Virus record (IMG/VR): IMGVR_UViG_2713896798_000006
Length of the DNA stretch: 25,620 nucleotides
Strand: one strand, 5' to 3'
Origin: a virus
Taxonomy: Duplodnaviria > Heunggongvirae > Uroviricota > Caudoviricetes
Part shown: positions 5,079 to 25,620 of the stretch, piece after piece
Layout of the letters: each line of letters opens with the position of its first letter
Numbering within the stretch: the stretch's first letter is position 1
The notes under the pieces: model-generated
Seen by the model: the letters and a program-made list of their open reading frames with translations, nothing else
Databases searched by the model: none
What the model was told of the DNA's origin: nothing
Translations under genes and position numbers: made by a program

Positions 5079-5136
5079 AAAAAGGGCGGCAGAGCAGCCA
5101 CGGAGTAAAACTGATACCGCCAAACGTCACCAGAAA
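5079..5136 (-). ncRNA. dicF: DicF small RNA (ftsZ-targeting sRNA of the dicB operon)
   Basis: Reverse complement of 5084..5136 reads TTTCTGGTGACGTTTGGCGGTATCAGTTTTACTCCGTGGCTGCTCTGCCGCCC followed by TTTTT, matching the ~53-nt DicF sequence as I recall it; lies about 175 nt upstream of dicB. Confidence 0.8.
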
Positions 5137-5175: not shown

Positions 5176-6371
<1,196 letters not shown>

Positions 6372-7434: not shown

Positions 7435-7529
7435 ATAATTTGGGCGCAACCTAATAGGTGATGGTTTGTGGAAGAGGTAGTAGGAGTTAACTAACGGGAA
7501 CTAGGAATTTCCCGTCGGACCATATAAGT

Positions 7530-12693: not shown

Positions 12694-12908
12694 GGTAAAA
12701 ACGGTTTGCGGTAAAGCGAGAGTTAAGTAGAATTGCTGCGGGTGCTTGAGGCTGTCTGCCTCGGGCATGCCACCGTAAGGCAGACAGAGAAAAGCCCCAG
12801 TTAACATTACGCGTCCTGCAAGACGCCTAACATTAATCTGAGGCCAATTTCATGCTAGACATATGTAGGTTAGCCTCTTACGCGCCGAAAGGCAAGGAGA
12901 AGCAGGCT

Positions 12909-13064
12909 ATGAAGCAGCAAAAGGCGATGTTAATCGCCCTGATCGTCATCTGTATCACCGTCATAGTGACGGCACTGGTAACGAGGAAAGACCTCTGCGA
13001 GGTACGAATCCGAACCGGCCAGACGGAGGTCGCTGTCTTCACAGCTTACGAACCTGAGGAGTAA
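12909..13064 (+). CDS. hokD: Hok/Gef family type I toxin (51 aa)
   Basis: MKQQKAMLIALIVICITVIVTALVTRKDLCEVRIRTGQTEVAVFTAYEPEE is essentially K-12 HokD as I recall it; followed by a terminator; the track ORF extends upstream in frame from 12852. Confidence 0.85.
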   Translation: MKQQKAMLIALIVICITVIVTALVTRKDLCEVRIRTGQTEVAVFTAYEPEE

Positions 13065-14573: not shown

Positions 14574-14948
14574 ATGCTCATAGATTTGGTTTTACCTTAC
14601 CCGCCGACGGTGAACACTTACTGGCGACGCCGTGGCAGCACATATTTTATCTCGGAGGAGGGAAAGCGTTATCGCCGGGCTGTGGCGCTTATTGTTCGCC
14701 AGCAGCGGCTGAAATTAAGCCTGTCCGGAAGGCTGGCGATAAAGATTATTGCCGAGCCACCGGATAAGCGCCGCCGTGACTTGGACAATATTCTGAAAGC
14801 GCCGCTGGATGCGCTGACGCATGCGGGGTTGCTAATGGACGATGAGCAGTTTGATGAAATCAATATCGTTCGTGCTCAGCCAGTATCTGGTGGACGTCTG
14901 GGGGTGAAGATTTACCCCATAATGCTTGAAGGGCAGGTCAAAAAATGA
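14574..14948 (+). CDS. rusA: RusA-type Holliday junction resolvase
   Basis: PPTVNTYWRRRG...PDKRRRDLDNILKAPLDALTHAGLLMDDEQ parallels RusA (PPSNNRYY...[26 protein letters not shown].Q). Confidence 0.75.
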   Translation: MLIDLVLPYPPTVNTYWRRRGSTYFISEEGKRYRRAVALIVRQQRLKLSLSGRLAIKIIAEPPDKRRRDLDNILKAPLDALTHAGLLMDDEQFDEINIVRAQPVSGGRLGVKIYPIMLEGQVKK

Positions 14949-15766
14949 AACTGGAAGATTTACCGAAATACTACTCCCCAAAATCCCCCGGCCTGACTGA
15001 TGCATCGGCCTCAACGTCGAAAGATACGCTGAGTATCACTGATGTGATGGCTGCGCAGGGCATGACACAGAATTGGGCTGAGATGGGGTTTTCTGCGTTC
15101 CTTGGGAAAATGGGCATTAGTATGAATGACAGAGAGCGGGCAACAGAATTGCTGACAGAATATGCACTCAGTCGGTGTGATCGCGTGGCGGCGTTAAGAA
15201 AACTCCCGGCAGAAATAAAACCGGCAGTGATGCGTATTATGGCTTCGTATGCGTTTGAAGATTATGCCCGTAGCGCGGCGAGCAAAAAACAGTGCCCCTG
15301 TTGTCACGGAAAAAAATTTATTGAAAGCGAGGTTTTTACAAACAAGATCCAGTATCCGGATGGTAAGCCGCCAGTGTGGGCAAAGTGCACAAAAGGCGTG
15401 TATCCGTCTTACTGGGAGGAATGGAAAAAAGTCAGGGAGGTGGTAAAAGTTGCCTGTCCGGAGTGTGGAGGGAAGGGGGAGGTTTCCACCGCCTGTAAAG
15501 ATTGTCGTGGGCGCGGTGTTGCCATTCATCGTGAAGAGTCGGTAAAACGTGGTATGCCTGTTATCAGAGACTGCCAGCGTTGTGGTGGTCGTGGCTATGA
15601 AAGATTACCTTCAACGGAGGCATTTAATGCCATATGTAATGTAACCGATGCCATATCTCTTGATACATGGAAAAAAACAGTTAAACGTTTTTACGATACG
15701 CTGGTGGTGCAGTTTGATATTGAAGAAGCATGGGCAGAACAACAACTGAAAAAGGTGACCAGATAG
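14945..15766 (+). CDS. Putative late antiterminator (Q-like) with DnaJ-type CxxCxGxG zinc-finger repeats
   Basis: Three CxxCxGxG motifs (CPECGGKG, CKDCRGRG, CQRCGGRG) plus CPCCHGKK; located after rusA and before a promoter/terminator pair and the lysis genes. Confidence 0.5.
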   Translation: MKLEDLPKYYSPKSPGLTDASASTSKDTLSITDVMAAQGMTQNWAEMGFSAFLGKMGISMNDRERATELLTEYALSRCDRVAALRKLPAEIKPAVMRIMASYAFEDYARSAASKKQCPCCHGKKFIESEVFTNKIQYPDGKPPVWAKCTKGVYPSYWEEWKKVREVVKVACPECGGKGEVSTACKDCRGRGVAIHREESVKRGMPVIRDCQRCGGRGYERLPSTEAFNAICNVTDAISLDTWKKTVKRFYDTLVVQFDIEEAWAEQQLKKVTR

Positions 15767-15915: not shown

Positions 15916-16366
15916 ATACCGGTCTTTCAGCTTGCTGGCTTTTTCGACAAGAGTTATTGGTGTGTCACGTTAACCGGAAAAAGGAAAGTTTGAGAAACGC
16001 GATCTGGCACAGGCGGTTATTAATGCTGCCTACCTGGTGGCCTGTGCAGATGGTGAATGTGAGGCTTCCTAGAAAGCGAAGATCGAACAGGTACTGCGTA
16101 ATCAGCCTGCGCTGTCCGCGTTTACGTCAGAAATTAATGCGATTAGCGCAACCATTATCGGTCAGCTGGATACGAACTTTAAAATTGGTCGTCGTGCGGC
16201 GTTACGTGAGATCGAGGATGTGAAACACGATACGCGTGAAGCGGAAGATGTGCTGGATGTGGCGGTGGCCATTGCGGAGGCAGACGGCGAAATTGAGCCG
16301 GAAGAGCGCAAGGTGCTGGAAGAGATTGCCGGTGTTCTGGGTCTTCGTCTGGAGAATCACCAGTGA
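15916..16366 (+). pseudogene. TerB-like domain gene remnant (frameshifted, in-frame TAG, no start codon)
   Basis: One frame reads ...KRDLAQAVINAAYLVACADGECEAS*KAKIEQVLRN...DVLDVAVAIAEADGEIEPEERKVLEEIAGVLGLRLENHQ; upstream part (FQLAGFFDKS) is in another frame; TAG at 16070..16072. Confidence 0.45.
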
Positions 16367-16530: not shown

Positions 16531-16695
16531 TTTTTTTGTTTACTGTTTATTAAAAATACTACTGCATGGTGAATCCCCCTGTGCGGAGGGGCAATCAGCA
16601 ACCAGGTATATGTGATAATCGCGGATTCAGGTGCTGATACTGAATTCACCGGGAGGCACCCGGCACCATGCAAGAAAAAGAATGTGCATGCAAAC

Positions 16696-16723
16696 ATGCC
16701 CCTCTCCTGAGGGGCATTTTTAT
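16696..16723 (+). terminator. Rho-independent terminator (plus strand)
   Basis: 9-bp stem ATGCCCCTC/GAGGGGCAT, loop tcct, then ttttta. Confidence 0.55.
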
Positions 16724-16724
16724 G

Positions 16725-16752
16725 GGTAAAAAATGCCCGAATGGGTTCGGGC
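16725..16752 (-). terminator. Rho-independent terminator (minus strand), back to back with the plus-strand one
   Basis: Stem gcccgaa/ttcgggc with loop tggg; on the minus strand it is followed by the U-run complementary to ggtaaaaaat. Confidence 0.4.
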
Positions 16753-16848
16753 AATAGCATGAGATACTGATATTGTTGTGTTGTTATCGTGTGGATTTTA
16801 ACCAGGGTTTATCAGGCTGCGCAACTGCGTGGCCTTTTTTCATTTCTT

Positions 16849-16936: not shown

Positions 16937-18787
16937 ATGACATTTAAACATTATGATGTTGTCAGGGCGGCGTCGCCGTCAGACCTTGCGGAAAAGCTGA
17001 CACACAAACTGAAAGAGGGCTGGCAGCCGTTTGGTAGTCCGGTGGCCATAACCCCTTATACCCTGATGCAGGCGATTACAGCAGAAGGTGATGTGGTGGT
17101 CAGTGGTGCAACTGAGCCGGAGTGGTACTACGTCATCGTACTGGCCGGGCAGTCCAATGCCATGGCTTACGGTGAAGGGCTTCCGCTGCCGGATTCATAC
17201 GATGCTCCGGATCCGCGCATTAAACAGCTGGCGCGCCGCAGTACAGTGACGCCGGGTGGGGCTGCCTGCAGATATAACGATATTATTCCGGCCGACCACT
17301 GCCTGCATGATGTGCAGGATATGAGTACGCTGAATCATCCGAAGGCAGACCTGAGCAAAGGGCAGTACGGCTGTGTCGGCCAGGGGTTACATATTGCCAA
17401 AAAACTGCTCCCGTATATCCCGAATAACGCGGGGATCCTGCTGGTACCATGCTGTCGTGGTGGTTCGGCATTTACCCAGGGCGCGGAGGGGACATTCAGT
17501 GCGGACACGGGGGCCAGCCAGGATTCGGCGCGCTGGGGTGTGGGTAAACCGTTATATCAGGACCTGATTGCGCGCACCAAAGCTGCATTACAGAAGAACC
17601 CGAAAAATGTGTTGCTGGCGGTGTGCTGGATGCAGGGAGAGTTTGACATGAGCGCCGCCACCCACGCACAGCAACCTGCGCTGTTTACAGCCATGCTGAC
17701 ACAGTTTCGTGCTGACCTCTCCGTGTTTAACGCGCAGTGCCATGGTGGCAGTGCTGCAGATGTGCCGTGGATTTGTGGTGACACGACGTATTACTGGAAA
17801 AATACATACGCTACCCAGTACGACACCGTGTACGGCGGGTATAAAAACAGGGAGAGTGAGGGCGTTTATTTTGTGCCCTTCATGACAGACGGTAACGGCG
17901 TCAATACCGCCACTAACGCGCCGGCAGAAGATCCGGATATTCCGGCATCAGGATATTACGGTGCGGCATCGAGAACGAATGGAAACCAGGTATCATCAAA
18001 CCGCCCGACACATTTCAGTTCATGGGCGCGCAGGAGCATTATTCCGGATCGTCTGGCAACCGCTATTCTGAACGCAGCCGGGCGCACCTCAGCCTTCATC
18101 AGTGGTAAGGCACCGGAAATCAAACCCTCGCCCGGCGGCAACACGCCATCGGGTCCGTCTGCAGATACGTCCGTTCGCACAATCTCCCTGCTGCCGGCAG
18201 CCGGAGAGGCTGCTGCGCAGGGCTGGAGCATTAAGGATGGCGGAATTCAGTTGTCAGATGGTGTATTTAAGATCACCAAGCAGAGCAATAAAACCTGGTC
18301 CCTGACGCATCCGGTGGATGACGCAATTACCCTGCTGACACAGGGCGGCAGACTGACCTGTAAGTTCCGCCTGTCAGGCGCACTGACCAACAATCAGTTC
18401 GGGCTGGGGATTTATCTGTATACGGATGCTCCCGTTCCTGATGGTGTGGCGATGACGGGTACCGGTAATCCGTTCCTGATGTCGTACTTCACTCAGACCA
18501 CTGACGGCAGAGTGAATCTGATGCATCACAGGAAAGCCGGAAACACGAAGCTGGGGGAGTTCGGCGATTACGGTAACGACTGGCAGACGCTGGAGCTGGT
18601 GTTCACCGCCGGCAGTGCCACGGTTACTCCGAAACTGAATGGAGTGGCTGGCCCGGCATTCCAGGTTATAAAAGACAGTCTGACACTGGGACTGAATGCG
18701 CTGACGCTGACGGATGTTACAAAAAATGCAGCGTATGGCGTTGAGATAGAAAGTCTGATGCTGGAGATAAATGCACCGGCAGCATAA
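16937..18787 (+). CDS. Prophage sialate O-acetylesterase-like protein (NanS-p type; SGNH/SASA hydrolase with N- and C-terminal extra domains)
   Basis: 616 aa; GQSNAMAYGEG motif early in the hydrolase domain; located between the Q-like gene and the holin, the usual site of nanS-p genes in EHEC lambdoid prophages. Confidence 0.6.
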   Translation: MTFKHYDVVRAASPSDLAEKLTHKLKEGWQPFGSPVAITPYTLMQAITAEGDVVVSGATEPEWYYVIVLAGQSNAMAYGEGLPLPDSYDAPDPRIKQLARRSTVTPGGAACRYNDIIPADHCLHDVQDMSTLNHPKADLSKGQYGCVGQGLHIAKKLLPYIPNNAGILLVPCCRGGSAFTQGAEGTFSADTGASQDSARWGVGKPLYQDLIARTKAALQKNPKNVLLAVCWMQGEFDMSAATHAQQPALFTAMLTQFRADLSVFNAQCHGGSAADVPWICGDTTYYWKNTYATQYDTVYGGYKNRESEGVYFVPFMTDGNGVNTATNAPAEDPDIPASGYYGAASRTNGNQVSSNRPTHFSSWARRSIIPDRLATAILNAAGRTSAFISGKAPEIKPSPGGNTPSGPSADTSVRTISLLPAAGEAAAQGWSIKDGGIQLSDGVFKITKQSNKTWSLTHPVDDAITLLTQGGRLTCKFRLSGALTNNQFGLGIYLYTDAPVPDGVAMTGTGNPFLMSYFTQTTDGRVNLMHHRKAGNTKLGEFGDYGNDWQTLELVFTAGSATVTPKLNGVAGPAFQVIKDSLTLGLNALTLTDVTKNAAYGVEIESLMLEINAPAA

Positions 18788-18999
18788 TAAAAAAAGCCAG
18801 CGCCCACTCTGAAGGACGCTGGCTAAAACGGGTAGATGTACTTCACATGATACTTATATTTGGCAGTACATTTTCTGACAGACAGTGACGGATGTTGTCA
18901 AGATATTGTGTCATTTATAACCTGAATCAGGGGTTGGTCGGAATGTTATCTGGCATTTTTAGCAGAGCCTGAATGCCATAATCACGGCTCCCGGCGTTG

Positions 19000-19034
19000 G
19001 CCGTCAGTGGGTGACACTGGCGGCTTTTTGTTTT
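19000..19034 (+). terminator. Intrinsic terminator immediately upstream of the holin gene
   Basis: Stem GCCGTCAGTG/CACTGGCGGC (one mismatch) with loop ggtga followed by tttttgtttt. Confidence 0.5.
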
Positions 19035-19079: not shown

Positions 19080-19286
19080 ATGGAAAAAATCACAACAGGT
19101 GTGTCATACACCACGTCAGCGGTAGGGACGGGATACTGGTTACTGCAACTGCTGGACAAAGTCTCTCCGTCCCAGTGGGTGGCAATAGGTGTGCTGGGGA
19201 GTCTGCTGTTTGGCCTGCTGACGTATCTGACTAACCTTTATTTCAAGATTAAAGAAGATAAGCGTAAGGTGGCGCGGGGAGAGTAG
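19080..19286 (+). CDS. Holin, phage 21 S-type pinholin
   Basis: [68 protein letters not shown] closely parallels S21 as I recall it. Confidence 0.8.
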
Positions 19287-19351
19287 TCGATGAATAAACA
19301 ATACGAACTGGTTGTAAAATGGTAAGCGTCAACGGAGCACCGTATTGACGC

Positions 19352-20965
19352 TTATTTATTGGTGAGTACTACGTTCCATGGCAGGAGTTCGTCAACTCGG
19401 TTGGAAGGCCATTCCGGCAGTACGCTCAGGATATGGCGCAGATACGCTTCCGGATCGATACCGTTCAGACGGCAGGTGCCGATCAGCCCGTACAACAGTG
19501 CTCCACGCTCGCCGCCGTGATCGCTGCCAAAGAACATAAAGTTTTTCTTTCCGAGACAGACTGCACGAAGCGCTCTTTCCGCAGCATTATTATCCGCCTC
19601 CGCCAGACCGTCATCACTGTAATAACAGAGGGCATCCCACTGATTCAGTACATAGCTGAACGCTTCGCCCAGTCTGGATTTTTTCGACAGCGTACCATTC
19701 TTCTCCACCATCCATTCATGCAGCGACGTCAGTAACACTTTGCTTCGCTGCTGCCTGACGGCAAGACGCTCTGACTCCGGTAATCCCCGTATTTCATCCT
19801 CGATGGCGTACAGTTCACTGATTCGCTTCAGGGCTTCTTCTGCCGTCGCACTTTTGCTGCTGATGTATACATCGTGGATTTTTCGCCGGGCATGGGCCCA
19901 GCACGCAACTTCTGTCAGTGCACCACCTTCACGTTCTGCACTGAACAACCTGTCGTAACCTGTGAACGCATCCGCCTGCAGGATACCCCGGAAGGGGCGG
20001 AGGTGTTGCTCCGGGTGTTTCCCCTGCCGGTTCGGCGAGTACGCGAACCAGACCGCTGGAGGAGATGACGAACCCACATTGCGATCATCCCGGACATACG
20101 TCCAGATACGCCCTGTTTTCGCCTTTTTCTGACCCGGTGCCAGTACCTTTACCGGTGTGTCATCAGTGTGAACCTTGCGGGTGTTCATTACATAACGGTA
20201 CAGGGCATCATTCACCGGTGTCATTAACTGGCAGCACGCGTCAACCCAGTTGGAGAGTAAGGCCCGGCTCAGTTCGACACCCTGGCGGGCAAAGATTTCA
20301 CTCTGACGATACAGTGGCAGATGTTCGCAGTATTTTCCCGTTAACACGCGGGCAAGTAATCCGGGGCCCGCGATACCACGCTCTATCGGGCGGGACGGCG
20401 CCGGTGCTTCAACAATACAGTCACATTTTGTACAGGCTTTTTTTACCCGTTCTGTGCGGATCACTTTCAGGGCACTGCTCACCAGTTCCAGCTGTTCAGC
20501 GCTGACTTCCCCCAGATAATCCAGCTCACCGCCACACTCCGGGCAACAGCTTTCTTCTGGCTCCAGGCGGTGTATTTCACGGGGAAGGTGTGCCGGTAAC
20601 GGACGACGATGGCGCGACTGTCGCAACTGGCGGGGAACCTGAGGATCGTCTTCCCGCCCACTGTAACGATCGCTGTCCTGTTCACGTTGTTTCAGCAGAG
20701 CCTCAGCCAGTTCAACTTCACGACGCAGTTTTTCAGAACGGGTACCGAACAGCATCCGGCGCAGTTTTTCTATCTGAGCCCGCAGATGTTCTATTTCCCG
20801 TTCATCTTCTTCGATCTTTTCTTCGGCACGTGTCAGTGCAGAGCGCAGGAAGGCTTCCGTCTCTTCAACCAGACTCAGTTGCTGGTCTTTCTGACGGAGG
20901 GCTTCAGCCTGCTCAGAGAGCAACCTTTCCAGCTCTGCGATGCGAATGAGGTATTTCTGACTCAT
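19352..20965 (-). CDS. IS66-family transposase (TnpC, 537 aa)
   Basis: N-terminal coiled-coil/leucine-zipper region, Cys-rich zinc-binding segment (CPECGG...CTKCDC) and length typical of IS66 TnpC. Confidence 0.85.
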   Translation of the reverse strand: MSQKYLIRIAELERLLSEQAEALRQKDQQLSLVEETEAFLRSALTRAEEKIEEDEREIEHLRAQIEKLRRMLFGTRSEKLRREVELAEALLKQREQDSDRYSGREDDPQVPRQLRQSRHRRPLPAHLPREIHRLEPEESCCPECGGELDYLGEVSAEQLELVSSALKVIRTERVKKACTKCDCIVEAPAPSRPIERGIAGPGLLARVLTGKYCEHLPLYRQSEIFARQGVELSRALLSNWVDACCQLMTPVNDALYRYVMNTRKVHTDDTPVKVLAPGQKKAKTGRIWTYVRDDRNVGSSSPPAVWFAYSPNRQGKHPEQHLRPFRGILQADAFTGYDRLFSAEREGGALTEVACWAHARRKIHDVYISSKSATAEEALKRISELYAIEDEIRGLPESERLAVRQQRSKVLLTSLHEWMVEKNGTLSKKSRLGEAFSYVLNQWDALCYYSDDGLAEADNNAAERALRAVCLGKKNFMFFGSDHGGERGALLYGLIGTCRLNGIDPEAYLRHILSVLPEWPSNRVDELLPWNVVLTNK

Positions 20966-20995
20966 GACCGTTTTTATAATGCGGTCAGGAGTTTT

Positions 20996-21346
20996 TTACA
21001 ACATTGTCAGTGAGTTACGGCTGGATGTTTTTGGCTGACGCCAGTCCAGCTTATCGAGGAGCATTGCCAGTTGCGAGCGGGTAATGGATACCTTGCCGTC
21101 ACGTACCGCAGGCCAGATAAACTGGCCTTCCTCCAGGCGTTTGGTGAACAGGCACAGACCATCAGCATCAGCCCAAAGAATTTTGACGGTGTCACCCCGT
21201 CGGCCACGGAAGATAAACAGGTGACCGGAGAAGGGATTATCATTCAGCACATGTTGTACCTGTTCTCCCAGTCCGTTGAAGGATTTACGCATATCGGTAA
21301 CGCCGGCAACGAGCCAGATACGGGTACCTGATGGGAGTGAGATCAT
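20996..21346 (-). CDS. IS66-family accessory protein TnpB (116 aa)
   Basis: MISLPSGTRIWLVAGVTDMRKSFNGL... typical IS66 Orf2; overlaps tnpA stop. Confidence 0.8.
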   Translation of the reverse strand: MISLPSGTRIWLVAGVTDMRKSFNGLGEQVQHVLNDNPFSGHLFIFRGRRGDTVKILWADADGLCLFTKRLEEGQFIWPAVRDGKVSITRSQLAMLLDKLDWRQPKTSSRNSLTML

Positions 21347-21768
21347 CTTCCCCTCCCGGTCAGTTCACGGATCAACACTGTGAGCAGCTCTGGCGATGGA
21401 TTTTCCAGCGTCATGTTACCGTGACGGAATTCCACCTTGCAGGAACTGGCACTGACTCTGGTCTGAGTGGAAGTGGATAAAGACGGCGCAATGGCCGCCA
21501 CAGGTTCTTTCTGCTCATCCGGCGTTATTTCTACAGGTAATAATTCAACGCCAGTGTCAGAAGAGGTCGTTACCGGAAGACGCCGCGAAACACGCCCTTC
21601 GTTCTGCCAGAGCCTGAGCCATTTGAAAATAACATTATCATTGACGCCATTTTCACGTGCAATCTGTGCAACACAAGCTCCAGGTTGTGATGCCAGTTCC
21701 ACCATACGAAGTTTGAATTCATTCGAATAGTTTTTACGAGGTTCTTTTCGCCAGTCCTGTAATTCCAT
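21343..21768 (-). CDS. IS66-family accessory protein TnpA (141 aa)
   Basis: HTH-containing first ORF of the IS66 operon, immediately upstream of and overlapping tnpB. Confidence 0.75.
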   Translation of the reverse strand: MELQDWRKEPRKNYSNEFKLRMVELASQPGACVAQIARENGVNDNVIFKWLRLWQNEGRVSRRLPVTTSSDTGVELLPVEITPDEQKEPVAAIAPSLSTSTQTRVSASSCKVEFRHGNMTLENPSPELLTVLIRELTGRGR

Positions 21769-22081
21769 ACTTAGATGTCCGTCTATATCAGATGGGCGTC
21801 TAAGTTACCAATTCTCGTCTGATGGCTACATACGGCGGTCAGTTTACGCTTACGTAAAATGAATATTTCTAACTGAAAAAACGTTCCATGAGGTGAGAAA
21901 AGGTCACAGGCAATCAATAACAGGACGTGATGAAAGACCCTTGCATTTGTGCGCTTTCTCTTTAGATAGCAGCAGATACTGAAAATCTGAGTTGTCGGGG
22001 AGTCAGGGATACAGCTGTGCAAGAGTTGGTCATTGTGATTCCATTGAAATCCTGTATGCCATGAAGGGCAGGATTTTATGG

Positions 22082-22396
22082 CTACCTGAGCTTTGGTGAT
22101 AGTAAGTTGAAAATTCGCATTTTTTGCTGACATGCGTAACGAGAATCCCATAAGCAGGGAGGACTTAATTCTTCATTAACCCATGCGTTGATATTATGTT
22201 TCAGCCGTTGAAGCATCAGCGGTGTTAATGTTGTGGTAATAATATCCAGCGTTTTATGTGAGATCTTACCGTAAGGGTCTGCAAGAATGCTGCTTGTTGC
22301 TTCGTTATTATCTGCCATCAGAAGAAGTAACTCTGATTTAACGTTTTCTGTCATTAGTTGTAAAAATCTTCTGCGCAAACTTTCTTTACTGTTCAT
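22082..22396 (-). CDS. Hypothetical 104-aa protein on the opposite strand, in an AT-rich segment between holin and endolysin
   Basis: ORF in the track; upstream on the minus strand is a perfect TATAAT; size and position resemble Qin ydfR (103 aa) but sequence identity not verified. Confidence 0.4.
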   Translation of the reverse strand: MNSKESLRRRFLQLMTENVKSELLLLMADNNEATSSILADPYGKISHKTLDIITTTLTPLMLQRLKHNINAWVNEELSPPCLWDSRYACQQKMRIFNLLSPKLR

Positions 22397-22513: not shown

Positions 22514-23047
22514 ATGAACGAAAAAATAAAATACGGCCTGTCGGCTGCCGTTCTGGCGCTGATTGGTGCAGGTGCTTCTGCGCCTGAAATCCTCGACCAG
22601 TTTCTGGATGAAAAGGAAGGTAACCACACCACGGCATACCGTGATGGTGCGGGGATCTGGACCATCTGCCGTGGTGCCATTCTGGTGGATGGTAAGCCTG
22701 TTATTCCTGGCATGAAGCTGTCAAAGGAAAAATGCGACCGGGTTAATGCCATCGAACGTGACAAGGCGCTGGCATGGGTGGAGAAAAACATCAAAGTGCC
22801 GCTGACCGAACCCCAGAAAGCGGGGATCGCGTCATTCTGTCCGTATAACATTGGCCCCGGTAAGTGTTTCCCGTCGACGTTTTATAAACGAATTAATGCA
22901 GGTGATCGAAAAGGTGCCTGCGAAGCGATTCGCTGGTGGATTAAGGACGGTGGCAGAGACTGCCGTATCCGCTCAAATAATTGCTACGGTCAGGTATCCC
23001 GGCGAGATCAGGAAAGTGCGCTGGCGTGCTGGGGTATCGACAGATAA
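22514..23047 (+). CDS. SAR endolysin (T4-lysozyme-like, GH24) with N-terminal signal-anchor-release domain
   Basis: Weakly hydrophobic Gly/Ala-rich N-terminus YGLSAAVLALIGAGASAP; catalytic E-x8-D-x5-T (EGNHTTAYRDGAGIWT); 177 aa. Confidence 0.8.
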   Translation: MNEKIKYGLSAAVLALIGAGASAPEILDQFLDEKEGNHTTAYRDGAGIWTICRGAILVDGKPVIPGMKLSKEKCDRVNAIERDKALAWVEKNIKVPLTEPQKAGIASFCPYNIGPGKCFPSTFYKRINAGDRKGACEAIRWWIKDGGRDCRIRSNNCYGQVSRRDQESALACWGIDR

Positions 23048-23482: not shown

Positions 23483-23941
23483 ATGCTTTCCGCGTTTACC
23501 GTTATTCTGCTGGTGGTCTGTGGTGCGCTTAGTCTGGGGCTGAATCATTACCGCGATAACGCCATCACCTACAAAGCGCAGCGCGATAAAAAAGCCAGTG
23601 AGCTGGATCTGGCAAACGCAACCATTACTGATATGCAGGTGCGCCAGCGCGATGTTGCTGCGCTCGATGCAAAATACTCGAGGGAATTAGCCGATGCGAG
23701 AGCTGAAAATGAAACTCTGCGTGCTGATGTTGCCGCTGGTCGTAAGCGCCTGCGGATCAACGCCACCTGCCCCGGTACCGTGCGTGAAGCCACCGGCACC
23801 TCCGGCGTGGGCAATGATGCCGCCGTCGAACTCTCTCCGGTTGCTGGACGAAACGTTCTCGGTATCAGAGACGGAATCATCAGCGACCAGGCAGCATTGA
23901 GAATGCTTCAGGAATATATCCGCACTCAGTGTATTAACTAG
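23483..23941 (+). CDS. Rz-like i-spanin (inner-membrane spanin subunit)
   Basis: N-terminal transmembrane helix then coiled-coil-like charged region; contains an embedded +1-frame lipoprotein ORF; alternative GTG start at 23468. Confidence 0.7.
23709..23900 (+). CDS. Rz1-like o-spanin (outer-membrane lipoprotein embedded in Rz in the +1 frame)
   Basis: [15 protein letters not shown] lipobox followed by Pro-rich mature region [16 protein letters not shown]; fully embedded in the Rz gene. Confidence 0.7.
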
Positions 23942-24189: not shown

Positions 24190-24922
24190 GCGACCTTATT
24201 ATTCATGCGCGGTATTGTCGCCGTATTCCTGCATTAACAGAGACCGCAGCCCGACCGGGAGAATCCTCTGCGCGAGTGTGCGGGGATAATCAAAAACGAT
24301 ACACACCGGGGTTTACCGCGTTAACGGAGCGCGGCGTTGTCCCCTCATGGTCGCTGGTCCGGTGCGATGGTGGAAGAAGCCGGATGTTTATCACTATTAA
24401 TTGATAACACAGAAATGGATTCATTGATTTTCAGCACGTTTTTGTATTCGTATTATTGAACATCTGTTTATTTTACTTTTAACATATTGATAATAAAAAG
24501 AGCTGTAAATCTTTAGATGAGTCGATTTTGTCCGGGGAAGTTCAAATGGATTTTATGCTGACGGTTTCTGGTGTGGTTATCCTGTCCATTGCTTATACTG
24601 CAGATAAATATGGCTGCCATTTGTTATCACGTATTGGCGCTTATTGCTCGTTGATGCTGATTTTCTCGTCGCTTTTTTTTGAGTAAGTTATATTAATTAT
24701 AACAAATAATTTTCTGTGTTTTTTCAGGCTATCCCGTCAGACGGGAAGCCTGTACTGCCGGGGGACGAATGGAAAACTGATGTGTCCGGTAACTGTGTGT
24801 TCTGTGAACACCATGTTACTTAATTATGTAATTCATACCCGAACGCTCTGTTGACAGCCTTCTTCTGCAGGCTTCAATAACCCACGCTGAAAAGTTACCG
24901 GAACCTTGGTAATGACTCCAAC

Positions 24923-25426
24923 TTATTGATAGTGTTTTATGTTCAGATAATGCCCGATGACTTTGTCATGCAGCTCCACCGATTTTGAGAACGACAGCGA
25001 CTTCCGTCCCAGCCGTGCCAGGTGCTGCCTCAGATTCAGGTTATGCCGCTCAATTCGCTGCGTATATCGCTTGCTGATTACGTGCAGCTTTCCCTTCAGG
25101 CGGGATTCATACAGCGGCCAGCCATCCGTCATCCATATCACCACGTCAAAGGGTGACAGCAGGCTCATAAGACGCCCCAGCGTCGCCATAGTGCGTTCAC
25201 CGAATACGTGCGCAACAACCGTCTTCCGGAGCCTGTCATACGCGTAAAACAGCCAGCGCTGGCGCGATTTAGCACCGACATAGCCCCACTGTTCGTCCAT
25301 TTCCGCGCAGACGATGACGTCACTGCCCGGCTGTATGCGCGAGGTTACCGACTGCGGCCTGAGTTTTTTAAATGGCGGAAAATCGTGTTGAGGCCAACGC
25401 CCATAATGCGGGCGGTTGCCCGGCAT
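24923..25426 (-). CDS. insB: IS1 InsB
   Basis: 167 aa, [58 protein letters not shown]... Confidence 0.9.
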
Positions 25427-25620
25427 CCAACGCCATTCATGGCCATATCAATGATTTTCTGGTGCGTACCGGGTTGAGAAGCGGTGTAAGTGAACTGCAG
25501 TTGCCATGTTTTACGGCAGTGAGAGCAGAGATAGCGCTGATGTCCGGCGGTGCTTTTGCCGTTACGCACCACCCCGTCAGTAGCTGAACAGGAGGGACAG
25601 CTGATAGAAACAGAAGCCAC
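25345..25620 (-). CDS. insA: IS1 InsA
   Basis: 91 aa, [43 protein letters not shown]...; start codon at the last base of the window. Confidence 0.9.

Follow-up and report, generated by a model that had tools for sequence, protein, structure and literature searches.

The stretch of DNA analysed here (25,620 nt, called the window in the following) belongs to a lambdoid prophage whose integration site adjoins potC. A complete insertion sequence of the IS66 family lies in its late region, between the holin gene S and the endolysin gene R (Table 1). Within the window, the ORFs for int, xis, the repressor, Q, S, R, Rz and Rz1 are intact. Two further IS elements are present, one of IS5 type (5323-6303) and an IS1 (24908 onward), and the IS elements found in the window sit in non-essential regions. 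The window ends inside the IS1, with the packaging and structural genes expected beyond that end.

Table 1. Features of the late region around the insertion; positions refer to the window.
Feature	Position	Strand	Basis or remark
Q antiterminator gene	14945-15766	+	PF03589 4.7e-50
Intrinsic terminator upstream of S	18999-19025	+	11-bp stem, then TTTTTGTTTT
S, phage-21-type class II holin (pinholin), 68 aa, intact	19080-19286	+	PF04971 1.8e-32
ydfR remnant, 10 codons (MNKQYELVVK)	19291-19321	+	empty-site reading ATGAATAAACAATACGAACTGGTTGTAAAATGA
Target-site duplication, left copy, GTAAAATG	19314-19321		nt 25-32 of ydfR remnant
ISEc23 (IS66 family), complete, 2532 bp	19322-21853	-	inverted repeats and target duplication at borders
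Terminal inverted repeat, tnpC end, GTAAGCGTCAACGGAGCACCGTAT	19322-19345		24 nt
Hairpin with 10-bp stem, overlapping the tnpC-side IS end	19323-19354		terminator-like in both directions; UUUAUU follows on + strand
tnpC, DDE transposase, 537 aa	19352-20965	-	PF03050 (DDE_Tnp_IS66) 9e-98
tnpB, IS66 accessory protein, 116 aa	20996-21346	-	PF05717 (TnpB_IS66) 1e-36
tnpA, HTH accessory protein, 141 aa	21343-21768	-	PF01527 (HTH_Tnp_1)
Terminal inverted repeat, tnpA end, GTAAGCGTAAACTGACCGCCGTAT (from outside inwards)	21830-21853		24 nt
Target-site duplication, right copy, GTAAAATG	21854-21861		perfect 8 bp
90-aa ORF native to the S-R gap	22082-22354	-	WP_000138558.1 in relative
R, putative SAR-type endolysin, 177 aa, intact	22514-23047	+	PF00959 3e-24
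Rz i-spanin, intact	23483-23941	+	PF03245 9e-40, profile positions 1-125 of 126
Rz1 o-spanin lipoprotein, embedded in Rz	23694-23900	+	PF06085 7e-21; lipobox VVSAC

The element is identical over its full length (100%) to many E. coli copies annotated as 'IS66-like element ISEc23'. We use the name ISEc23 on the basis of such identical copies, which NCBI PGAP calls 'ISEc23 family'. The tnpC product also matches zf-IS66, LZ_Tnp_IS66 and IS66_C, and scores 452 bits against the NF033517 equivalog (cutoff 180). The other two products were recognized by NF033819 (tnpB, 120.9 bits, cutoff 50) and NF047595 (tnpA, 83 bits, cutoff 74). The TnpB of IS66 elements is not related to the protein of the same name in IS200/605. 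As read from the sequence, the tnpA stop and the tnpB start overlap as ATGA (21343-21346). The terminal inverted repeats are imperfect (24 nt, 83% complementary) and both begin with GTAAGCGT (GTAA). Imperfect repeats of about 15-35 bp are usual in the IS66 family, and 5'-GTAA is their hallmark in the ISfinder descriptions. Membership of this family is indicated by the type of TnpC, the overlapping tnpA-tnpB-tnpC gene order, the 8-bp duplication and the GTAA repeats.

The general picture of the IS66 family is one of tnpABC organization with tnpC encoding the DDE transposase and 8 bp as the normal length of the target duplication (PMC6778807). The prototypes IS66 and IS679 (Machida 1984, Han 2001), taken here from the summary in PMC6778807, share these three properties with ISEc23 but stem from other hosts and are divergent in sequence. 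In size and inverted-repeat length, ISEc23 lies in the range of other members. Compared with ISEc23 from E. coli RefSeq genomes and plasmids, the copy in the window has the same ORFs, GTAA repeats and 8-bp duplication, and no difference in the element was seen. Perfect 8-bp duplications also flank eight other ISEc23 copies, and identical copies occupy many different sites, each with a duplication of its own, which is an indirect sign of transposition activity. The copy in the window is complete and seems to be functional. As judged against 5426 complete genomes, novelty is limited to the insertion site, and the element itself is already known.

The 25.6-kb window contains two copies of the octamer GTAAAATG and no more, each directly abutting a terminal inverted repeat. 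The probability that 8/8 positions agree by chance at the two ends of the element is about 1.5e-5, and any remaining doubt about the insertion is removed by the existence of a natural empty site. The empty site was reconstructed by joining the flanks with one copy of GTAAAATG (1201 nt); it is found uninterrupted and 100% identical in NZ_CP144930.1, in O103:H2 12009, among others, it is 99.8% identical, and 595 of the 5426 complete genomes have it at a coverage of at least 80%. The original prediction had placed an IS66-family element at 19314-21861, inserted with an intact 8-bp duplication between the holin gene and those for endolysin, Rz and Rz1, and transcribed opposite to the late operon. 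These coordinates are exact, both copies of the repeat being included; the flanking direct repeat was seen again on re-inspection, gene order and orientation are as described, and the uninterrupted locus in other genomes bears out a simple insertion.

Over 19,321 nt, the window and the prophage of NZ_CP144930.1 are 99.995% identical, with a single SNP (position 7438), and the next 1,734 nt are 100% identical. The same IS junction was found in none of the 5426 complete E. coli genomes. The best junction match (96.4%), in O39:NM F8704-2, was rejected as a different insertion, 2 nt off. On these comparisons, ISEc23 entered by a simple and recent insertion that is private to the genome studied, since a natural empty site exists and none of the complete genomes searched has the junction. 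One SNP in 19.3 kb relative to a genome with the empty site indicates that the insertion is very recent and not a fixed lesion. Taken alone, it adds one further prophage copy of an IS that is frequent in E. coli, and is of use mainly as a strain-specific marker.

The interrupted cassette is of phage 21 type according to profile matches and reading of the translations, which give a pinholin, a SAR-like endolysin and Rz with embedded Rz1. S also matches phrog_9876 and phrog_20 (both holin) and is named 'class II holin family protein' by RefSeq in the identical relative. The translation of R has a Gly/Ala-rich N-terminal segment (YGLSAAVLALIGAGASA) and an E-x8-D-x5-T motif, which suggests a SAR-type endolysin with a SAR-like N-terminus. 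PF04971, PF00959, PF03245 and PF06085 follow each other in the same order as in the phage 21 cassette (S21, R21, Rz/Rz1). Unlike phage 21, the start of S has no evident dual-start motif as far as can be read from its sequence, and S and R are separated by a 687-bp spacer, which contains the ydfR remnant and the reverse-strand 90-aa ORF.

The insertion point is located 35 bp downstream of the stop codon of the pinholin gene, inside the ydfR remnant, whose counterparts in intact ydfR genes start MKKKYELVVKG (L002) and MTQNYELIVKG (L003). The actual target of the IS is a non-functional remnant, and no functional gene is disrupted. The reverse ORF covers only positions 70-158 of the 159-position phrog_1853 and has no match in Pfam or NCBIfam; in the annotation of NZ_CP144930.1, the order at the empty site is holin, reverse hypothetical, lysozyme. 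A once-contiguous lysis cassette, as originally assumed, is contradicted by this arrangement, because the 687-bp spacing with both sequences is already present in the empty site. With S and R already 687 nt apart, there was no coupling between them to lose.

We consider it probable that the insertion is a mostly neutral event at a target site favoured by the IS, and that R, Rz and Rz1 would still be expressed. The terminator located 55 nt upstream of S has a folding energy of -20.5 kcal/mol (z -4.8) and a U-tract, and the gene called 'antitermination protein' by RefSeq in the relative encodes Q. A strong terminator just before S, together with a Q gene, suggests that only terminator-resistant (Q-antiterminated) polymerase reaches S, in which case terminators borne by the IS should be read through as well. 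Such read-through should apply here by analogy with the biology of lambda, 21 and 82. Suppression of polarity was reportedly described by Forbes and Herskowitz in 1982. The classical polar IS insertions known from lambda and from the gal operon, whose effect is relieved by N or Q, likewise place the IS inside an antiterminated phage operon, so suppression would be expected here too; the genetic tests of those cases used IS1 and IS2, while for ISEc23 and a PF03589-type Q we infer it. Polymerase loaded with Q is highly processive, resists pausing and termination, and suppresses polarity (reviewed in PMC12360218).

ISEc23 has transposed into the ydfR remnant by simple insertion with an 8-bp duplication. 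The proposed course from there is as follows. The insertion would add 2.54 kb of antisense sequence to an R leader of 687 nt that lacked translation even before. Only Q-antiterminated RNA polymerase which has passed the pre-S terminator would reach S, R and Rz/Rz1. It would also read through the hairpin at the border of the IS, and through Rho sites if the IS has any. Expression of R, Rz and Rz1 after induction would be kept, at most with a short delay or a modest reduction.

Alternatively, the insertion may be a strongly polar lesion, uncoupling S from R, Rz and Rz1 and leaving a lysis-defective prophage as a step in domestication. The original prediction had taken this view, and it finds some support in the position of the IS between S and R, antisense to the late operon, and in the presence of the two other IS elements in the prophage. 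Further, the late transcript first meets a terminator-like hairpin inside the IS, with folding energies of -18.3 kcal/mol on the + strand (z -3.7) and -17.0 kcal/mol on the - strand (z -5.1); it had been missed by the first terminator scan because its loop is longer than 8 nt. An Rfam scan gave no match within or beside the IS. A sequence scan of the + strand between the IS and R revealed no promoter-like site, so that R lacks an independent one upstream and depends on the late transcript with or without the IS. We nevertheless regard a strongly polar lesion as unlikely. The stronger terminator at 18999-19025 already demands antitermination, Q-modified polymerase resists termination, and the earlier distance of 687 nt means that no coupling existed. 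All lysis genes are intact and only one SNP in 19.3 kb separates the prophage from its empty-site relative, thus giving no sign of long-term decay. Lysis by phage 21 depends on a pair of pinholin and SAR endolysin, and loss of R still leaves a lethal pinholin, so the prophage would not be made harmless.

Strong polarity of ISEc23 on R, Rz and Rz1, which the original prediction expected, is therefore opposed by the pre-S terminator and the Q gene and appears unlikely, whereas some polarity on downstream genes may occur. The hairpin at the IS end with its UUUAUU (-18.3 kcal/mol) could terminate a fraction of the transcripts, and the long untranslated antisense RNA may destabilize the downstream message. 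The claim of a lysis-defective, domesticated prophage is not supported, since the ORFs of all four lysis genes and of Q, integrase and repressor are intact, and the insertion happened very recently. Causes other than this IS may still make the prophage defective, as the window ends before the structural genes. Among the O157 prophages, those that bear IS elements and look defective can often still be induced (PMC2669165), and an IS within a late operon should not be equated with a dead phage. Four isolated lambdoid phages with ISEc23 (Lambda_4C10, 4A7, 1W and 3W) were considered as a test of polarity and proved uninformative because the IS is at the very end of their late operon, beside the tail-fibre gene.

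The first nucleotides of ydfR have been hit repeatedly. At least seven independent ISEc23 insertions are located within nt 15-37 of ydfR, a stretch of 23 bp, in three prophage backgrounds and in both orientations. The starts of seven of them, or by another count of six of the eight in the S-R gap, lie no more than 16 nt apart; for six of eight, simulation gave a p of about 5e-7 with a 690-bp gap. Identical 8 bp were used by two insertions (L003, L008). The three cases in opposite orientation were found with a chimeric query carrying a flipped IS, and a single orientation of all S-R gap insertions was thereby recognized as an ascertainment artefact of the junction query. The remnant in the window was still hit by ISEc23 although ydfR itself has been lost. 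Repeated insertion in both orientations and in other prophages fits a target preference better than selection for one effect. On balance, the first approximately 37 nt of ydfR (consensus TAYGAACTGRTTGTNAAAGGGAT), downstream of S21-type holins, seem to be a regional target hot spot for ISEc23. We know of no other regional target hot spot in the IS66 family. None is mentioned in the passages on the IS66 family that were covered here.

That the IS was instead selected in the S-R gap to tune or delay lysis or to abolish ydfR would explain the recurrence (ISEc23 entered the gap eight times independently, in different E. coli lineages) but is very improbable, as the insertions cluster tightly although any spot in the 340-bp ydfR or the gap would serve, both orientations occur with the same 8 bp used twice (L003, L008), the site is seldom occupied (in a few of the roughly 500 genomes that carry one type of prophage), and in the window no function was left to inactivate since ydfR was already a 10-codon remnant.

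A preferred target site, if mechanistic in origin, would be a predictable point of IS-driven variation in E. coli prophage lysis cassettes, including those of ExPEC and STEC lineages. At the hot-spot position, the lysis cassettes of otherwise identical prophages differ among closely related clinical isolates. The recurrent 23-bp target is a natural, sequence-defined substrate for studying target choice by an IS66-family transposase, and a mechanistic cause of the hot spot would offer a rare handle on this choice in a poorly understood family.

An inverted-repeat-like sequence (TAAGCGTAA, family D19) in the 3' end of S in the window was rejected as a general cause of the hot spot because the other backgrounds with hot-spot insertions lack it. 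Folds of 102 nt for three variants revealed no DNA hairpin or cruciform above shuffled controls (z 0.21, 0.85 and -0.55). A metagenome scan for more hot-spot junctions returned six matches, all chance occurrences of GAACTG elsewhere. Among twenty ISEc23 duplications, taken from E. coli as well as from other genomes, no clear target motif emerged beyond a mild A/T richness beside the tnpC end.

The 8-bp sequence GTAAAATG occurs twice in the whole window (19314–19321 and 21854–21861), and both copies immediately adjoin imperfect inverted repeats which enclose three IS66-type open reading frames. The start of tnpB overlaps the stop of tnpA in ATGA. All testable defining traits of the IS66 family are present (tnpABC order, IS66-type DDE transposase, GTAA inverted repeats, 8-bp duplication and typical size), in agreement with the original prediction. 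The element comprises 2532 bp and is 100% identical over its full length to many chromosomal and plasmid copies from Escherichia coli. Its name, ISEc23, is taken from the RefSeq label of these copies (‘IS66-like element ISEc23’) and not from an ISfinder reference. A near-full-length copy is found in 2489 of 5426 complete genomes. The finding is real but ordinary: an already known insertion sequence in an already known kind of place.

Features of the window. Rfam hits exceed the gathering score.
Feature	Position	Strand	Remarks
DicF sRNA	5084–5135	−	Rfam
sok antitoxin RNA	12740–12914	+	Rfam; adjoins hokD
Q (antiterminator)	14945–15766	+	PF03589; intact ORF
STnc100	16538–16727	+	Rfam; between Q and SASA esterase gene
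AgvB (anti-GcvB sRNA)	16728–16789	−	Rfam; between Q and SASA esterase gene
S (holin)	19080–19286	+	PF04971, phage-21 type; intact ORF
Terminal inverted repeats	19322–19345 and 21830–21853		24 nt, 83% complementary, each begins GTAAGCGT
tnpC	19352–20965	−	PF03050 (9e-98); zf-IS66, LZ and IS66_C domains; NF033517, 452 bits (cutoff 180)
tnpB	20996–21346	−	PF05717, NF033819
tnpA	21343–21768	−	HTH protein; NF047595 above cutoff
Reverse ORF of S–R gap	22082–22354	−	Matches only positions 70–158 (C-terminal part) of 159-position phrog_1853
R (endolysin)	22514–23047	+	PF00959; Gly/Ala-rich SAR-like N-terminus; E-x8-D-x5-T motif; intact ORF
Rz (spanin)	23483–23941	+	PF03245; intact ORF
Rz1 (spanin)	23694–23900	+	PF06085; intact ORF

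Joining the flanks and keeping one repeat copy gave a 1201-nt query representing the empty site. E. coli SCPM-O-B-9504 (NZ_CP144930.1) has this sequence uninterrupted and 100% identical. Strain O103:H2 12009, like many strains of O145, O45 and O103, has it at 99.8%, and it is present at a coverage of at least 80% in 595 genomes. The comparison with strains having the uninterrupted locus, as originally proposed, hence confirms a simple insertion with target duplication. The SCPM-O-B-9504 prophage, which adjoins potC, aligns with the entire window, with one mismatch in the 19,321 nt before ISEc23 and 100% identity over 1,734 nt after it. No match to the window's ISEc23 junction was found among the 5426 complete genomes searched. 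Based on this absence and the single mismatch, the insertion is recent and private. The Rz gene of SCPM-O-B-9504 carries a 66-nt in-frame deletion between CAGCGCGAT direct repeats (window 23588–23653; approximately 22228 in the relative's locus), whereas that of the window has the intact form. The portal gene of SCPM-O-B-9504 is annotated with a frameshift.

The window contains the same type of pinholin/SAR-endolysin/spanin cassette as phage 21. It had been described as once contiguous, which does not hold: at the empty site, 687 bp separate the holin stop from the endolysin start, and RefSeq marks a 90-aa reverse-strand hypothetical protein between them. This reverse ORF gave no match in Pfam and NCBIfam searches and looks like a 5′-truncated moron remnant. 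A short ORF, ATGAATAAACAATACGAACTGGTTGTAAAATGA, begins 4 nt past the S stop. As its product MNKQYELVVK matches the N-termini of intact YdfR-family proteins encoded at the same position in other prophages (MKKKYELVVKG..., MTQNYELIVKG...), ISEc23 has lodged in a 10-codon ydfR remnant, interrupting no functional gene.

The predicted polar effect on the lysis genes is plausible in a weakened form only. A canonical intrinsic terminator (18999–19025; 11-bp stem, −20.5 kcal/mol, followed by UUUUUGUUUU) is located 55 nt 5′ of S, so that polymerase arriving at S must be terminator-resistant already. In lambdoid phages, it is Q that confers this resistance by modifying the enzyme at the late promoter. 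R is preceded by 687 nt of non-coding sense-strand RNA even without ISEc23 and thus was never reliant on translational coupling to S. Polymerase travelling along the late operon would meet a single recognisable obstacle in ISEc23: a 10-bp hairpin (19323–19354; −18.3 kcal/mol, followed by UUUAUU) that overlaps the element's end on the tnpC side and is weaker than the terminator already passed by the late transcript. A plus-strand scan found no promoter-like site ahead of R, with or without the element. The upstream terminator and the pre-existing gap argue against strong polarity on R, Rz and Rz1, which would still be produced after induction. Since 2.5 kb are transcribed in about 1 minute, the cost would be at most a short delay or a modest reduction; some late transcripts may end early or be degraded.

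Nor do the data indicate a domesticated prophage. The genes for int, xis, repressor, Q and lysis are all intact, and divergence from the empty-site relative amounts to one SNP; intactness refers to genes of the window, which stops inside an IS1 (from 24908), with packaging and structural genes beyond. O157 prophages that seem defective and bear insertion sequences are often still inducible (PMC2669165). The IS1 (24908–25620; PF03400; 98–99% identical to IS1A/IS1B) breaks a ylcI/ynfO-family gene past the lysis cassette, runs off the window end and is missing from the near-identical SCPM-O-B-9504 prophage. It may represent a simple insertion or the boundary of a deletion or rearrangement. An IS5-family element (transposase ORF 5323–6303, minus strand; ISKpn26 according to the relative's annotation) sits in the early-left region, with dicB/DicF on one side and ydfC on the other; it is common to both prophages and therefore older than the ISEc23 insertion.

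Less expected, if true, is a hot spot for ISEc23 in the 5′ end of ydfR. Junction searches in both IS orientations revealed ISEc23 in the S–R gap of eight further genomes, representing seven distinct events (E24 and E25 share one), every one with its own perfect 8-bp duplication.

ISEc23 insertions in the S–R gap. Positions are counted from the ydfR ATG.
Genome	Duplication	Position	IS orientation relative to late operon
SCPM-O-B-7615	CGAACTGG	nt 15–22	Co-directional
E24/E25	AACTGATT	nt 17–24	Opposite
The window	GTAAAATG	nt 25–32	Opposite
O39:NM F8704-2	TAAAGGGA	nt 27–34	Opposite
884	AGGGATCC	nt 30–37	Opposite
21714	AGGGATCC	nt 30–37	Co-directional
E41-1	GACCTGTT	Downstream of hot-spot positions	Opposite
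EC931	TGGAATGG	Downstream of hot-spot positions	Co-directional

The candidate hot spot covers nt 15–37 of ydfR (23 bp; window 19305–19327) and received six to seven independent insertions in three prophage backgrounds and both orientations. In the other prophage loci, it maps to 4804 (L002), 4752 (L003), 3793 (L006), 3752 (L008) and 3739 (L009). Strains 884, 21714, E24/E25 and E41-1 carry one prophage type (same holin protein, same neighbours), which was thus struck four times independently; its uninterrupted locus exists in about 504 genomes at ≥99% identity. Six of the eight distinct events in the ~690-bp gap start within 16 nt, as did one in 2,000,000 uniform simulations (p ~5e-7). On balance, we lean towards a genuine target hot spot. 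Very tight clustering, the use of both orientations even at an identical 8 bp and a remnant that no longer has a product speak for a mechanistic preference for this target rather than for selection. Folding of the region found no hairpin at the hot spot, 20 ISEc23 duplications yielded no target consensus, and a metagenome scan added no further hot-spot insertion. Comparison of window 19318–19330, joined to 21862 onward, with ydfR of L002 and L003 shows that homology between gaps bearing ydfR and gaps like that of the window, which has the reverse ORF in place of ydfR, breaks off at about nt 30 of ydfR, within the hot spot. This may be coincidence or the trace of an older IS-associated rearrangement.

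Directly past Q lies a pseudogene of the TerB family that contains an internal stop (about 16004–16366; transferred from the relative's annotation). Further downstream, a 616-aa NanS-p-like esterase (16937–18787, plus strand; DUF1737, SASA and DUF6645) occupies the same place as in Stx phages, but the window has no stx genes. Identical ISEc23 copies adjoin the tail-fibre gene, beside sitABCD cargo, in the isolated lambdoid phages Lambda_4C10 (LR595861.1, 5001–7532), 4A7, 1W and 3W, indicating that ISEc23 travels within packaged phage genomes.
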